A stretch of DNA of 64,000 bases from a virus (Duplodnaviria; Heunggongvirae; Uroviricota; Caudoviricetes): the IMG/VR virus record IMGVR_UViG_3300032236_001858, one strand, 5' to 3'. Position 1 is the stretch's first letter, and every line of letters begins with the position of its first letter. Below, piece after piece: positions 6,509 through 49,422 of this stretch. A model generated the notes under the pieces. The model was not told the DNA's origin and made no database searches. It saw nothing but the letters and a program-made list of their open reading frames with translations. A program made the position numbers and the translations under genes.

Positions 6509-6519
6509 AAATTTTATTG

Positions 6520-6567
6520 TATATTTGTAAAAAATAAGAAAAGGGACTAAACTTTTTTAATATATAC
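6520..6567 (+). promoter_or_regulatory. tandem promoter block (TAnnTTTG + AAAAGGGAC..CTTTT + TAATATATA) upstream of tRNA-fMet
   Basis: Near-identical block recurs at 30967-31016 and 46548-46598. Confidence 0.7.
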
Positions 6568-6584
6568 ACATACAATAAAAACAT

Positions 6585-6656
6585 TGCGGGGTAGAGAAGA
6601 GGCATCTCGCCAGGCTCATAACCTGGAGGTCAGTGGTTCGAATCCACTCCCCGCTA
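6585..6656 (+). tRNA. tRNA-fMet (CAT)
   Basis: Cloverleaf, CCAGG-CT CAT AA-CCTGG, unpaired 1:72, A73. Confidence 0.9.
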
Positions 6657-6755
6657 CAAATAGAAAGACAGGACAAATATCTGATCAGCCCCAAGAAGGT
6701 AGGGTAGAGTACTCTGAACAAGTCTTTCTAAGGAATTAAAAAAATATTAAAAATA

Positions 6756-7996: not shown

Positions 7997-8061
7997 CAAA
8001 AATAAAAAAAATTAAAAGGGAAGACAAAACTTTTTATATATACATTAATATAATTAAAACG

Positions 8062-8142
8062 ATGAAAAATTTAACTAACATATCAACAGCAATCATAGGA
8101 GGCGGCGCGGGAGCGAATGTCACTGGCTGGACTATGTTATAA
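8062..8142 (+). CDS. attenuator leader peptide B (Gly/Ala/Ile): MKNLTNISTAIIGGGAGANVTGWTML
   Basis: ATC ATA GGA GGC GGC GCG GGA GCG run; TCACTGGCTGG (8120-8130) pairs 11 bp with the terminator 5' arm. Confidence 0.87.
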   Translation: MKNLTNISTAIIGGGAGANVTGWTML

Positions 8143-45821: not shown

Positions 45822-46013
45822 ATGAAAACAGGAACAGTAAAGTTCTACAATGAGGCTAAAGGATTTGGTTTCATCACAGACGAAAACGGAACTGACGTGT
45901 TTGTACACGCTACAGGACTAAAAGATGAAATCAGAGAAAATGATTCAGTTAGCTTTGAAGTAACAGAAGGTAAAAAAGGATTAAATGCAATTAATGTAAC
46001 AGTTAATGCTTAA
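45822..46013 (+). CDS. cold-shock domain protein
   Basis: GTVKFYNEAKGFGFI (RNP1), VFVH (RNP2). Confidence 0.95.
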   Translation: MKTGTVKFYNEAKGFGFITDENGTDVFVHATGLKDEIRENDSVSFEVTEGKKGLNAINVTVNA

Positions 46014-46032
46014 TATATTTTTAGTACTAATT

Positions 46033-46062
46033 AAAACCCTTAGATTTATCTGAGGGTTTTTT
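46033..46062 (+). terminator. intrinsic terminator
   Basis: AAAACCCTTAGA-TTTA-TCTGAGGGTTTTTT. Confidence 0.85.
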
Positions 46063-46087: not shown

Positions 46088-46462
46088 ATGAAATATTTAC
46101 AAACAATAAACGAATATCAAAGAACTGTAGGTTTTAGATATTCTGAACCAAAAGAAAAATATAAAGTATCTTTATTATGTAAAGGTCAAGATATCAATGA
46201 AGATAAGATAAATGAAGGTTTATCAAAAGTTAGTGAATTGACTTATGACTCAAAGTCTATTGAAGTAAATTTACTTGATGAAGGTATGATTGCTGAACTA
46301 CCAGAAATTGGATCTGTAGAGATTAGCGCAATTGTTAGTTTTAATGTAACTCTTTACAATGAGAAAGAAGTAAATGGTGTTGTTAGTGAATTAGGTCAAA
46401 AGTTATCAAAATTTGATATTGAAATATTAGATTTTAAATCAAAAGAAAATTTGGAAGATTAA
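46088..46462 (+). CDS. tagged hypothetical protein
   Basis: MKYLQTINEY; TAATATATA at 46075. Confidence 0.72.
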   Translation: MKYLQTINEYQRTVGFRYSEPKEKYKVSLLCKGQDINEDKINEGLSKVSELTYDSKSIEVNLLDEGMIAELPEIGSVEISAIVSFNVTLYNEKEVNGVVSELGQKLSKFDIEILDFKSKENLED

Positions 46463-46547
46463 AATATTATTTCTATCTTTGTATTCACAAAACAAAAAAG
46501 AATTAAAAAAAAATTAAAAAAATATTTGACAAATTAAAACTTTGTTG

Positions 46548-46598
46548 TATATTTGTATAAAATAAGAACAAAAGGAACAAAAACTTTTTAATATATAC
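46548..46598 (+). promoter_or_regulatory. tandem promoter block upstream of leader D
   Basis: TTTG(46525)..TATATTTG...AAAAGGAACAAAAACTTTTTAATATATAC. Confidence 0.72.
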
Positions 46599-46602
46599 AG
46601 AA

Positions 46603-46701
46603 ATGAAAAACTTAAACTTAAATATCGTTAACCCTCAACCGCAAGTTGTAATCGATCAGGATCCTGGTTCGAAAGGGGCTAACTATGTGGTTTTAAGTTA
46701 A
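46603..46701 (+). CDS. attenuator leader peptide D (Pro/Gln/Asp): MKNLNLNIVNPQPQVVIDQDPGSKGANYVVLS
   Basis: CCT CAA CCG CAA .. GAT CAG GAT CCT; GGCTAACT (46677-46684) pairs with AGTTAGTC of the terminator. Confidence 0.83.
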   Translation: MKNLNLNIVNPQPQVVIDQDPGSKGANYVVLS

Positions 46702-46724
46702 AGATATTATAACTATGAAACATT

Positions 46725-46757
46725 ACCCAGTTAGTCGAAAGATTAACTGGGTTTTTT
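46725..46757 (+). terminator. attenuator terminator D
   Basis: ACCCAGTTAGTC-GAAA-GATTAACTGGGT + T tract. Confidence 0.9.
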
Positions 46758-46768
46758 GTTTTAGATAC

Positions 46769-46840
46769 AGTCCGTGGGTATGTTGGTATGAATAACCTCC
46801 TGTCACGGGGAAGAAGCCGGTTCGATTCCGGTACGGACTG
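46769..46840 (+). tRNA. tRNA-Asp (GTC)
   Basis: CT GTC AC loop, G73. Confidence 0.85.
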
Positions 46841-46845
46841 CAAAA

Positions 46846-46919
46846 CGAGAAGTGACTAAGGTTTTAAGCACGCGCCGTCTGGAGCGGTGAGTTAGCAGGT
46901 TCGATTCCTGTCTTCTCGA
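46846..46919 (+). tRNA. tRNA-Pro (TGG) with C33
   Basis: CGCCG-TC TGG AG-CGGTG; C1:G72, A73. Confidence 0.72.
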
Positions 46920-46982
46920 CAACAAGTAGCTTTTGAGGCGAAAAATACTCTTTAGAGAATAGAGTAAAACAATTCTCAAAAT

Positions 46983-47055
46983 GGTCTCGTGGTTGAATGG
47001 TTACAATACCACCCTGTCACGGTGCGAGATGCCGGTTCGATTCCGGTCGAGACCG
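46983..47055 (+). tRNA. tRNA-Asp (GTC)
   Basis: CACC-CT GTC AC-GGTG, G73. Confidence 0.88.
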
Positions 47056-47060
47056 CAAAA

Positions 47061-47131
47061 GGACATATAGCTTAAAAGGAAAGAGTACCTCCAGTGGGAG
47101 GGGAGTCTTGGTTCAAGTCCAGGTATGTCCG
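47061..47131 (+). ncRNA. tRNA body with non-canonical anticodon arm
   Basis: GGACATA/TATGTCC-G and normal T arm; arm CCTCC-AGTG-GGAGG (4-nt loop) or AG TGG GA in a weaker register. Confidence 0.55.
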
Positions 47132-47137
47132 CAAAAA

Positions 47138-47209
47138 GGTCTATTAGGGTAGTGGTTATCCTTCCCGACTGTCTATCGGGAGACACCGGTTCGAATCCGG
47201 TATAGACCG
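47138..47209 (+). tRNA. tRNA-Asp (GTC)
   Basis: CCCGA-CT GTC TA-TCGGG. Confidence 0.9.
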
Positions 47210-47256
47210 CAAATGGGCTTTTCAAGACAAAAAGTTTGTAGATTACTTAATGAAAC

Positions 47257-47331
47257 GGTCTAGTGGTGAAGTGGCTATCATATCTGCCTGTCACGCAGAA
47301 GTAGAGGGATCGAAACCCTTCTAGACCGCCA
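47257..47331 (+). tRNA. tRNA-Asp (GTC)
   Basis: TCTGC-CT GTC AC-GCAGA; T loop ATCGAAA; encoded CCA. Confidence 0.88.
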
Positions 47332-47337
47332 AAAATT

Positions 47338-47412
47338 CGGGGTGTAGCGTAGTCCGGTTATCGCGCATGCTTTGGGAGCATGAAATCGTAGGTTCGAATC
47401 CTGCCACCCCGA
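47338..47412 (+). tRNA. tRNA-Pro (TGG)
   Basis: CATGC-TT TGG GA-GCATG; C1:G72. Confidence 0.92.
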
Positions 47413-47443
47413 CAAAGAAACAAAATATTAATAAATAGAAATT

Positions 47444-47497
47444 ATGAGAACAACAACACAATACCAGCAACAACAACAAATTAATCCAACGGATTGA
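47444..47497 (+). CDS. attenuator leader peptide E (Gln): MRTTTQYQQQQQINPTD
   Basis: CAA TAC CAG CAA CAA CAA CAA; GGATTGA over the stop codon pairs with TCAATCT of the terminator. Confidence 0.88.
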   Translation: MRTTTQYQQQQQINPTD

Positions 47498-47525
47498 TAA
47501 CGGTATCGTATTGTCTAAACTTTAC

Positions 47526-47559
47526 AAACCCTATTCAATCTGATTGAGTAGGGTTTTTT
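47526..47559 (+). terminator. attenuator terminator E
   Basis: AAACCCTATTCAAT-CTG-ATTGAGTAGGGTTT + T tract. Confidence 0.9.
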
Positions 47560-47561
47560 AT

Positions 47562-47632
47562 TGTCTGATGGTGTAGTGGTAGCACAAGGGTCTTTGATCC
47601 CCTTAGTTCAGGTCCGATTCCTGATCAGACAA
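47562..47632 (+). tRNA. tRNA-Gln (TTG)
   Basis: CT TTG AT loop, U1:A72. Confidence 0.85.
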
Positions 47633-47639
47633 CAAATAT

Positions 47640-47721
47640 TGAGGAATAGAATAATGGCAGTTCACCCGCCTTTGAAGCGGAGAGAGAAATCTCAGTGTAG
47701 GTTCGAGTCCTACTTCCTCAA
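47640..47721 (+). tRNA. tRNA-Gln (TTG) with long variable arm
   Basis: CCGC-CT TTG AA-GCGG; V-arm GAGA-GAAA-TCTC. Confidence 0.82.
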
Positions 47722-47727
47722 CAAAAT

Positions 47728-47799
47728 TGCTTTATAGTATATGGGTTAACATATCTGTCTTTGAAACAGATGAACTTGGTTCGAGTCCAAGTGGAGCAA
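47728..47799 (+). tRNA. tRNA-Gln (TTG)
   Basis: TCTGT-CT TTG AA-ACAGA. Confidence 0.88.
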
Positions 47800-47817
47800 C
47801 AAAAAATAATAACTACT

Positions 47818-49422
47818 ATGAATTTCATTGAAGAAAAAATAATTGAAAAAGGTAATCTTGATAAACTAACATTGAGATTTCCACCAGAACCAAATGGCTA
47901 TTTACATATTGGTCACGCTAAATCCATTATCTTAAATTTTGGTTTAGCTGAAAAATATAATAGACCTTGTAACTTGAGATTTGATGATACTAACCCAACT
48001 ACCGAAGATACTCACTTTGTTGAGTCAATTATAAAAGATATAGAATGGTTAGGTTACAAACCCGCCAATATTTTCTATACATCTGATTATTTTGATTTTC
48101 TTTATGAATGTGCTATTACTTTAATTAAAAAAGGATTAGCTTATGTTGATGATTCAACATCAGAAGAAATTGCTAACTTAAAAGGAACACCAACTTCACC
48201 TGGTAAAGATTCACCTTATAAGTCAAGAAGTGTTGATGAAAATTTAGACCTATTTAATAGAATGAGATTAGGTGAATTTGTAGAAGGTTCTAAAATTCTT
48301 AGAGCTAATATTGATATGACTTCTCCTAATATGATTTTAAGAGATCCAGTTCTTTATAGAATAATATCTAAGTCACACCACAGAACTGGTGATACTTGGA
48401 AGATTTATCCAATGTATGACTTTGCTCATCCACTTTCAGATTATAAAGAAGGTATTACCGATTCTTTATGTACTTTAGAATTTGAAGTTCACAGACCTTT
48501 ATATATGTGGGTTTTAGAAAATTGTGATTTAGAAAATCCGCTTCCAGAAGAAACTGAGTTTGCTCGTTTGAACATTGACTATACGGTTATGTCAAAGAGA
48601 AAATTAAAAAGATTAGTTGAAGAAGGATTTGTAGATGGTTGGGATGATCCAAGAATGCCAACTATTTCTGGTTTAAGAAGAAGAGGTTTTACTCCAAATG
48701 CTATTAAAGATTTTTGTGATAGAATTTCTGTTACAAGAAAAGATGGTATTGTTTCTTATTTACTTTTAGAAGAATGTTTAAGAACTGATTTGAACATAGT
48801 TACCAATAGATTAATGGGTGTTATGGATCCAGTTAAGTTAGTTATTACTAATTGGGATAGCGGAACTGAAATGGTTGAAGTTGAAAATAATCCTGGTGAT
48901 GAAAGTGCTGGTACAAGAATGATTCCTTTTAGTGGTGAACTATTTATTGAAAGAGAAGATTTCAGAGAAGAAGCTAATAATAAATTTCATAGATTGAAAT
49001 TAGGTGGTGAAGTAAGATTAAAAGGCGCTTATGTTATTATGGCTAACGAAGTTATCAAAGATGAATTTGGAGAAATCACTGAGATTAGATGTACTTACGA
49101 TCCTTTAACAAGATCAGGTATGTCTATTGAAAGAAAGATTAAAGGAACTATTCACTGGGTATCTGCTGAACACGGAGTTAGAATGAATGTAAATGAATAT
49201 GATAGATTATTTAATGATGGATCACCAGATAAAAATGAAGATGATTTTATCAATTATATCAACCCAGATTCACTTATAATTAATGATAAGGCAATCTTTG
49301 AACCTCACGTTTTAAACGTCAAGGAACCAGTTCAAATGATGAGAAAAGGGTATTATATTTTAGATACTGATGGTAAAAGTTTCAATAAAACGGTAAGTTT
49401 AAAAGAAGGTTGGGTAGGTTAA
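47818..49422 (+). CDS. glnS: glutaminyl-tRNA synthetase (534 aa)
   Basis: RFPPEPNGYLHIGHAK, RFDDTNP, YPMYDFAH, CTLEF, MSKRKL, GWDDPRMPT. Confidence 0.95.
   Translation: MNFIEEKIIEKGNLDKLTLRFPPEPNGYLHIGHAKSIILNFGLAEKYNRPCNLRFDDTNPTTEDTHFVESIIKDIEWLGYKPANIFYTSDYFDFLYECAITLIKKGLAYVDDSTSEEIANLKGTPTSPGKDSPYKSRSVDENLDLFNRMRLGEFVEGSKILRANIDMTSPNMILRDPVLYRIISKSHHRTGDTWKIYPMYDFAHPLSDYKEGITDSLCTLEFEVHRPLYMWVLENCDLENPLPEETEFARLNIDYTVMSKRKLKRLVEEGFVDGWDDPRMPTISGLRRRGFTPNAIKDFCDRISVTRKDGIVSYLLLEECLRTDLNIVTNRLMGVMDPVKLVITNWDSGTEMVEVENNPGDESAGTRMIPFSGELFIEREDFREEANNKFHRLKLGGEVRLKGAYVIMANEVIKDEFGEITEIRCTYDPLTRSGMSIERKIKGTIHWVSAEHGVRMNVNEYDRLFNDGSPDKNEDDFINYINPDSLIINDKAIFEPHVLNVKEPVQMMRKGYYILDTDGKSFNKTVSLKEGWVG

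Follow-up and report, generated by a model that had tools for sequence, protein, structure and literature searches.

The 64,000-nucleotide (nt) stretch of DNA analyzed here (the window) corresponds to bases 224490–288489 of a 476,236-base virus record, IMGVR_UViG_3300032236_001858. It is AT-rich (30% G+C) and carries 37–40 transfer RNA (tRNA) genes, which are grouped in blocks and lie without exception on the + strand. Among database records, two uncultured phages of 635 and 642 kb, both unannotated, come closest to it. We describe one such block, unit D, in which a short open reading frame (ORF), here termed leader D, and a predicted intrinsic terminator precede seven tRNA genes. The sequence suggests that leader D acts as a multivalent, ribosome-mediated (leader-peptide) transcription attenuator of this tRNA block, positioned upstream of a second attenuator, E, and we consider this reading likely. 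The phage would probably make Asp and Pro tRNAs, and the Gln tRNAs behind the second switch, only when Pro, Gln or Asp codons are read slowly.

The −33/−7 promoter consensus of Bacteroidota is TTTG / TAnnTTTG, and the promoters of the window match this type by motif comparison. From its promoters to its last tRNA gene, unit D comprises the following features.

46474–46481: second −7 box, upstream of the main promoter of unit D
46525–46555, + strand: host-type promoter (TTTG, 19 nt, TAtaTTTG; alternatively TTGACA-16-TATATT)
46590–46598, + strand: gene-start motif AATATATAC, 4 nt 5′ of the leader D ATG
46603–46701, + strand: leader ORF D, 32 codons, peptide MKNLNLNIVNPQPQVVIDQDPGSKGANYVVLS, stop codon at 46699–46701
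46633–46665, + strand: regulatory codons PQPQVVIDQDP, codons 11–21 (CCT CAA CCG CAA ... GAT CAG GAT CCT)
46725–46758, + strand: intrinsic terminator, 12-bp stem (46725–46752), GAAA loop and U-run; −18.0 kcal/mol
46769–46841, + strand: tRNA-Asp (GTC), copy 1; Rfam 32 bits, 3-bp D stem
46846–46920, + strand: tRNA-Pro (TGG) with unusual D arm; Rfam 29.6 bits
46983–47056, + strand: tRNA-Asp (GTC), copy 2
47061–47132, + strand: odd tRNA-like gene; Rfam 45 bits, 6-nt anticodon loop CAGUGG
47138–47210, + strand: tRNA-Asp (GTC), copy 3
47257–47331, + strand: tRNA-Asp (GTC), copy 4
47338–47413, + strand: tRNA-Pro (TGG)

The promoter at 46525–46555 scores 11/12 in a sigma-70 scan. Leader D is the sole listed + strand ORF of ≥20 amino acids (aa) between this promoter and the terminator, and the first tRNA of the block begins 16 nt past the terminator stem, with no promoter motif between the D terminator and the D tRNAs. 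An A-run/T-run inverted repeat precedes AATATATAC in unit D, and the motif itself is found before the leader in 10 of 12 related units described below. In a loosened form, ATATATA[A/C/T] placed 2–7 nt (mostly 3–4) before an ATG, it has 71 matches in the genome, preceding ∼65 ORFs of 70–759 aa on both strands as well as six of seven tRNA leaders. The motif resembles a promoter or gene-start signal specific to the phage, one that would yield nearly leaderless mRNAs. The inverted repeat occupies the same position, 5′ of the motif, in the tRNA units. A tRNA-Met gene at 6510–6657 of the window carries the complete promoter module (TAtaTTTG, inverted repeat, AATATATAC) without a leader ORF or terminator, and is the only ungated tRNA block start in the window.

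Immediately upstream of unit D lie a gene for a cold-shock-domain protein (45822–46060; 63 aa; Pfam CSD, 1e-18), which has its own terminator, and then a 124-aa ORF (46088–46462) without a Pfam match. No terminator occurs between the stop of the latter and position 46725. The hairpin and U-run could on this account be a constitutive terminator, an insulator or an RNA-end stabilizer belonging to gene 46088–46462, the leader ORF being fortuitous, as short ORFs commonly are in AT-rich DNA, and the tRNAs being expressed by leakage or from elsewhere. We regard this as very unlikely. Two host-type promoters and the gene-start motif separate that gene from the terminator, and the stretch between terminator and tRNAs holds no promoter motif from which the tRNAs could be made. 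By our estimate from base composition, a 31-codon frame would stay open by chance with a probability of ∼0.07 per lineage, yet it is open in all 12 related units. A constitutive terminator would also leave unexplained both the conserved antiterminator and the conserved window of codons.

Codon content of leader D and its tRNA cargo

The sequence-only reading from which this analysis started had placed a cluster of Pro, Gln and Asp codons at 46633–46665. This cluster is present: codons 11–21 comprise three Pro, three Gln and two Asp codons, 8 of 11 against 1.4 expected from the genome's proteome (binomial 9e-6, for a core picked by eye after the fact). From the window sequence alone the case for attenuation is moderate, and its strength comes from the genome-wide pairing of leaders with tRNAs, from orthologues and from RNA structure.

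A blind search of the genome for terminators with a short ORF before them and a tRNA behind returned seven leader-terminator-tRNA units, all on the + strand (C1 218458–272289). Their leaders and tRNA cargoes are as follows.

H/K/F/W-rich leader: Phe, His, Trp, Lys
S/R-rich leader: Arg, Ser
YYYEGE leader: Glu, Tyr
GGGAGA leader: Gly, Ala
T/M/N/L/V-rich leader: Asn, Ile, Leu, Val, Thr, Met
Leader of unit D: Asp, Pro
Leader with a Gln run (unit E): Gln

When leaders and tRNA sets are permuted in all 5040 ways, the excess of cognate residues is highest for the actual pairing. Five of the seven leaders have a host-type −7 box and six an ATATATA-type motif; leader E has neither. The gated units split 19 amino acids among themselves without overlap (F/H/W/K; R/S; E/Y; G/A; N/I/L/V/T/M; D/P; Q), and a single tRNA-Cys is isolated, far off at C1:132971.

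Twelve D-type units were compared: that of the window and those of L001, L002, L003, L005, L006, L007, L009, L012, L015, L032 and L033. They were gathered through glutaminyl-tRNA synthetase (GlnRS), blastn and the terminator pattern, and fall by our grouping into about six lineages; among the orthologues reached through GlnRS, identity of this protein is 57–93%. The exact D terminator pattern found just two new contigs among viral contigs (L032 and L033). A metagenome scan with GlnRS gave 80 loci, nearly all at 53–57% identity and read as cellular GlnRS, with no new D orthologue among them. A BLAST search of the D leader against the L008, L010, L011 and L013 records gave chance matches only, and L114 proved to be coding sequence. 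A further contig, L039, ends just after its D leader.

The leader ORF is kept at 25–35 codons in all 12 units, with no in-frame stops, whereas the remaining frames have 51 and 32. The three closest relatives differ in codons 2–21 at third positions only, by two synonymous and no amino acid changes, and in codons 22–32 by five amino acid changes. Within a 12-codon sensing window, anchored on the conserved antiterminator strand rather than on the peptide, Pro accounts for 22% of codons, Gln for 27% and Asp for 21% (70% together); outside it the respective counts are 1/216, 3/216 and 1/216. The order of core residues differs among lineages (PQPQ..DQDP, QVQRQ..DQDQPD, PQQQPDQDPD, QVQPDPQ), so it is composition that is conserved, not sequence. 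Gln is the most enriched residue of the D-type leaders, at 27% of the sensing window and 3.9-fold over whole leaders. The rare codon CCG makes up 15 of the 33 Pro codons in these leaders versus 5% genome-wide, an excess in keeping with a sensitive sensor, although pairing needs may contribute to it.

On the side of the cargo, four Asp and two Pro tRNA genes had been reported previously; all six are confirmed, as Asp(GTC) and Pro(TGG), but a seventh, the odd tRNA-like gene at 47061–47132, had been missed. The complete order is Asp, Pro, Asp, odd tRNA-like, Asp, Asp, Pro. The atypical tRNA-Pro at 46846–46920 is detected only by Rfam and by relaxed ARAGORN, and L001 and L002 also have a tRNA-Pro(AGG) of the same odd build. 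No two of the four tRNA-Asp genes are alike in sequence. The odd gene has a counterpart in L002 (LR745206) at 1823–1896 with a different, longer loop, which ARAGORN reads as 'gtag'; a His identity (GTG) was considered for it and rejected, because the acceptor end lacks G-1:C73 in the fold and the loop of the L002 counterpart differs. The 63-nt spacer at 46920–46982 (L002 1483–1542) contains a GAATTC palindrome as well as a small hairpin that is conserved (TACTCT ... AGAGTA), and may act in processing or as a small RNA.

Predicted mutually exclusive folds of the leader RNA

The leader RNA has three mutually exclusive predicted folds: a protector, an 8-bp antiterminator and the terminator listed above. 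The first two are built from these elements.

46621–46708, + strand: protector (anti-antiterminator); regulatory codons in its 5′ arm and tip, region 2 sequestered by its 3′ arm
46652–46672, + strand: hairpin H, the tip of the protector, over the I-D-Q-D-P-G-S codons; UCGAUCAG/CUGG-UCGA with loop GAUC
46677–46736, + strand: antiterminator; region 2, GGCUAACU (46677–46684), with the terminator 5′ arm, AGUUAGUC (46729–46736), 8 bp exact

The protector is the minimum-energy fold of untranslated 46603–46724 and forms one long imperfect hairpin (−25.8 kcal/mol, z −2.2). The antiterminator is the minimum-energy fold of 46666–46740 (−15.8 kcal/mol), a segment that mimics a ribosome stalled on the last core codon while the terminator 3′ arm is still unmade. 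An 8-bp antiterminator had been anticipated, and pairing of 46677–46684 with 46729–46736 is exact. The competing hairpin, which had been drawn as ATCAGG/CCTGGT, needs more revision. A hairpin does lie over the codons, but the proposed register leaves a 2-nt loop and cannot form, and the computed hairpin is that of 46652–46672 with loop GAUC. Moreover, the real competitor of the antiterminator is the larger protector at 46621–46708, of which the small hairpin is the tip. That hairpin H serves as a pause hairpin coupling polymerase to ribosome is speculation.

Pairing was scored on an alignment of the 12 sequences (A2), in which controls with the partner slid along the sequence are overall 12–43% paired. 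The terminator is paired in 97.9% of cells, with five pairs changed on both sides. The antiterminator is paired in 92.6%, versus 12–37% with its partner slid. The protector 1:2 helix reaches 67.7%, with four pairs changed on both sides, and hairpin H reaches 74%, with three. At one protector pair (A2 columns 31/90), nine sequences have G-C and a single sequence, which we read as L001, has A-U; region 2 of L001 is CUAAUU. In L005 the peptide encoded over region 2 changes from A-N-Y to A-G-C and pairing is kept via G-U pairs, which places the conservation over region 2 at the level of the RNA.

These data bear on whether the ORF might instead encode a functional micropeptide whose gene the terminator merely ends. 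The leaders do share a conserved N terminus, MKN/MKT..NI, of the kind that a selected peptide would show, but the same N terminus is found on leaders with quite different cores. Core residues are scrambled in order among lineages with their composition kept, the C-terminal half varies freely as protein with RNA pairing kept (the L005 change and G-U replacements), and a Pfam search of the leader D peptide gave no match. We find a micropeptide hardly conceivable.

The spacing of the elements is also constrained. The gap between the last Pro, Gln or Asp codon and region 2 is 7–10 nt in 10 of the 12 D-type units, in 11 of 12 the extended region 2 ends 4–13 nt short of the stop codon, and the stop codon lies 19–25 nt 5′ of the terminator across the units. 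These distances fit the needs of the classical model for a bacterial ribosome footprint, with footprint sizes taken from established knowledge. Leader D therefore carries each sequence-level element of an attenuator, namely promoter and ORF, codon cluster, terminator, antiterminator, protector and footprint geometry. The reading of the locus as a leader-peptide attenuator, already put forward from the letters of the window, holds at this level, with its elements present and conserved in the 12 D-type units. What the sequence shows is the anatomy of the locus, a set of alternative folds, the conservation of these folds and the match of codons to tRNAs.

From these features we infer leader translation, stalling, kinetic competition and, indeed, any regulation at all. 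In the model, transcription would start from the host-type promoter and, probably, from the phage gene-start motif as well, and a ribosome would translate the 32-codon leader. With fast decoding of Pro, Gln and Asp codons the ribosome would reach the stop codon at 46699–46701, where it would overlie the 3′ portion of region 2 or allow the protector to re-form behind it; once region 2 is covered or recaptured, the terminator (46725–46752) would fold and the polymerase would halt before the tRNA genes. When charged tRNA-Pro, -Gln or -Asp is short, the ribosome would stall in codons 11–21 and melt the protector, leaving region 2 (46677–46684) just outside its footprint. The freed region 2 would capture the terminator 5′ arm ahead of synthesis of the 3′ arm, and transcription would read through into the four Asp, two Pro and odd tRNA genes. 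If the leader is not translated, the protector would stay in place and transcription would terminate.

A number of observations weigh against this model. The 12 D-type orthologues are non-independent samples. Asp plus Pro codons are not significantly enriched across the whole of leader D (5/31, p=0.19), and in the D-type set Asp is just 1.2-fold enriched over whole leaders; Val and Asn are enriched as well, probably for pairing. GAUCAGGAUC is conserved as nucleotides within hairpin H, and its DQD codons may partly serve structure. Changes in the antiterminator are one-sided only (G-U, A-U, G-C), with no compensatory pair. Energies of the 2:3 duplex are just 0 to 3.3 standard deviations better than those of shuffles, with RNAduplex giving weak significance at best and choosing other registers in L009 and L015. 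Full-length minimum-energy folds always give the terminator, a masked ribosome included, so that read-through requires a kinetic switch like that of the trp leader. Before the 3′ arm is synthesized, the fold of six orthologues already favors 2:3 without a ribosome, so the protector must win there by forming first. Because single-sequence thermodynamics is weak, the structural case rests on conservation and not on energies.

The alternative folds alone would equally fit a trans-acting factor, such as uncharged tRNA in a T-box-like manner or a phage antiterminator protein, reading the leader RNA in place of a ribosome, with the ORF incidental to sensing. Bacteroidota-type mRNAs are not known to have a Shine-Dalgarno sequence that could be scored in favor of translation. 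Several features nonetheless point to a ribosome. The frame is open in 12 of 12 units, and the core shows synonymous change only. In-frame Pro, Gln and Asp codons are limited to a window set by ribosome-footprint distances. The ATG lies at the same distance from its motif as in ∼65 protein genes, and the codon-tRNA match over the seven units is the best of 5040 pairings. An Rfam search of 46450–46790, T-box included, found no match at E≤10. We consider a factor other than the ribosome quite unlikely, and return to the model of a leader-peptide attenuator.

Putative attenuator E and the series arrangement

Behind the last tRNA-Pro of unit D lies a second unit with the following features.

47444–47556, + strand: attenuator E; leader MRTTTQYQQQQQINPTD (47444–47497) with five consecutive Gln codons, terminator at 47526–47556
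47562–47800, + strand: three tRNA-Gln (TTG)
47818–49422, + strand: glnS, glutaminyl-tRNA synthetase, with Pfam class I E/Q synthetase domains

The glnS gene is the last of the unit, and the next gene is on the opposite strand. Leader E begins 30 nt past the last D tRNA, and neither a host-type −7 box nor an ATATATA-type motif occurs anywhere in 46599–47818. A promoterless spacer of 30–36 nt also precedes E in L001, L002, L003 and L006. Two attenuators in series on one transcript, with tRNA-Gln genes only behind the second, had been surmised at the outset; both points agree with what we find, and no tRNA-Gln was found before attenuator E in the window. As E has neither promoter motif, tRNA-Gln and glnS can in the window be reached only by polymerases that have passed D, and D must therefore respond to Gln shortage. 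Given that E lacks a promoter of its own in the window, a leader D devoid of Gln codons would leave the outer gate closed when only Gln is short. In the model, polymerases past D would meet leader E, where a second, Gln-specific stall would be needed for expression of the three tRNA-Gln and glnS, and the Gln codons of leader D would let Gln shortage open the outer gate. The Gln codons of D would accordingly persist because E lies in series.

A real attenuator could instead sense Pro and Asp only, the Gln codons being an ancestral relic or a need of pairing and the D-E series having no selected logic. In L009 and L033 tRNA-Gln still lies directly behind leader D, an arrangement from which such a relic could derive. 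One CAG of leader D sits in the conserved hairpin H, and a CAA sits in the 5′ arm of the protector. L005, L012 and L015 keep their Gln codons though their E units carry the phage gene-start motif, which, like the CAG in hairpin H, counts against the series logic. Other features favor selection on the Gln codons themselves. Their number and position vary (PQPQ, QVQRQ, PQQQP, PQQPQ) with composition kept, indicating selection on codons and not on fixed nucleotides, and CAA and CAG interchange. Only in the L007 lineage does E possess its own full promoter with no tRNA-Gln in the D block, and here most Gln codons are lost, two of three having been replaced and one left. We judge a sensor of Pro and Asp alone to be rather unlikely and, provided that the attenuator itself is real, lean toward the logic of D and E in series.

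Comparative hints agree with a D-E series but are few. They include the tRNA-Gln genes located directly behind leader D in L009 and L033, and the reduced Gln codons of L007. In L010 an N/Q/Y/W-rich leader precedes Tyr, Trp, Asn and Asn tRNAs and then, ∼1 kb on, two tRNA-Gln; neither an E-type gate nor a promoter motif occurs between the Asn tRNAs and the two tRNA-Gln. In the window, leader A, upstream of leader B (Gly/Ala; 8000–8062), has one Gly and one Ala codon beside its Tyr/Glu run. Leader B has the AATATATAC module and no host-type −7 box. In A and B an outer leader may again carry the codons of an inner one, though this case is weaker than that of D and E. L008, in which an L/R/Q/E leader is followed at some distance by an E-type gate, was set aside as a second independent case of a series, because its E could be driven from a phage-type motif at 2621.

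In L012 (2759–3688) and L015 (2757–3683) a gene of ∼309 codons lies between the D tRNAs and unit E, runs in frame into the E leader and shares the stop codon of that leader. Since similar ORFs of 275–277 aa occur at the same place in L007 and L009, this gene is probably a mobile insertion.

Relation to known systems and implications

Leader-peptide attenuation is textbook knowledge for amino acid operons and a few synthetase genes. The closest counterparts of leader D are the enterobacterial leaders ilvL of ilvGMEDA (Ile/Leu/Val) and thrL (Thr/Ile). These too are promoter-proximal short ORFs with clustered codons for more than one amino acid, in which protector, antiterminator and terminator are mutually exclusive and a stall on any sensed codon leads to read-through. 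In contrast, D would regulate tRNA genes instead of enzymes of biosynthesis, it belongs to a phage whose promoters are of the Bacteroidota type, and its sensed set would include Gln, whose tRNAs sit behind a second gate. D is unrelated to these leaders in sequence and matches no Rfam leader family.

Attenuators have been predicted before trpS and leuS in Streptomyces (PMC1262725). As in these and in pheM-pheST of E. coli, a gene of the translation apparatus whose product relieves the sensed stall lies downstream, here glnS as the last gene; unlike them, the first and main cargo of D consists of tRNA genes, and the synthetase lies behind two gates in series. T-box riboswitches (RF00230) likewise lie upstream of translation genes and sense the supply of charged tRNA, with terminator and antiterminator competing, but D has no specifier loop or T-box sequence, and its proposed sensor is a translated ORF. 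Tandem leaders, such as the three T-boxes of B. subtilis thrZ and the SAM/AdoCbl riboswitches of B. clausii metE, also put two termination switches on one transcript. They differ in that seven tRNA genes separate the D and E switches, and in that D, the outer switch, would control a superset and E, the inner one, a subset, D also carrying the codons of E.

Within this genome, units A, B, C, E, U1 and U2 share with D the promoter module, the MKN/MKT start, the style of terminator and the matching of codons to tRNAs. D differs from them as the outer member of a nested pair, and is the only leader here with codons for tRNAs behind another gate.

The one point at which D departs from the described members of this class is its cargo: those regulate genes for amino acid biosynthesis or synthetases, and D precedes seven tRNA genes. 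A full-text literature search found no report of leader-peptide attenuation of tRNA genes; its coverage of subscription journals is thin, and absence there is not proof. Control of this kind was found published only for amino acid and synthetase genes, and D would in this sense be a known mechanism on a cargo for which we found no report.

Considered across the genome, we tentatively envisage a hierarchical codon-sensing network, a possibility that we would put a little short of probable. In it, ∼60 spare tRNA genes would be arranged in seven attenuator-gated regulons covering 19 amino acids, each tRNA set, plus a synthetase, being tuned to the decoding speed of its own codons. At least one pair of gates would be nested (D then E), the outer leader having the union of codons (Pro, Asp, Gln) and the inner a subset (Gln). 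Unit D itself adds one leader that would sense three amino acids and a nested two-gate arrangement with a clear logic.

If attenuation of the tRNA genes is real, phage tRNA genes are not simply expressed but would be switched on, codon family by codon family, upon slow decoding. This would bear on why phages carry tRNAs, whether to compensate for codon usage or to replace tRNAs that the host has destroyed, and a codon-sensing network could also answer host defenses that deplete particular tRNAs. The leaders would in addition be compact, ready-made codon-specific sensors for Bacteroidota-type systems, and would give annotators a simple rule by which to split phage tRNA arrays into regulons.

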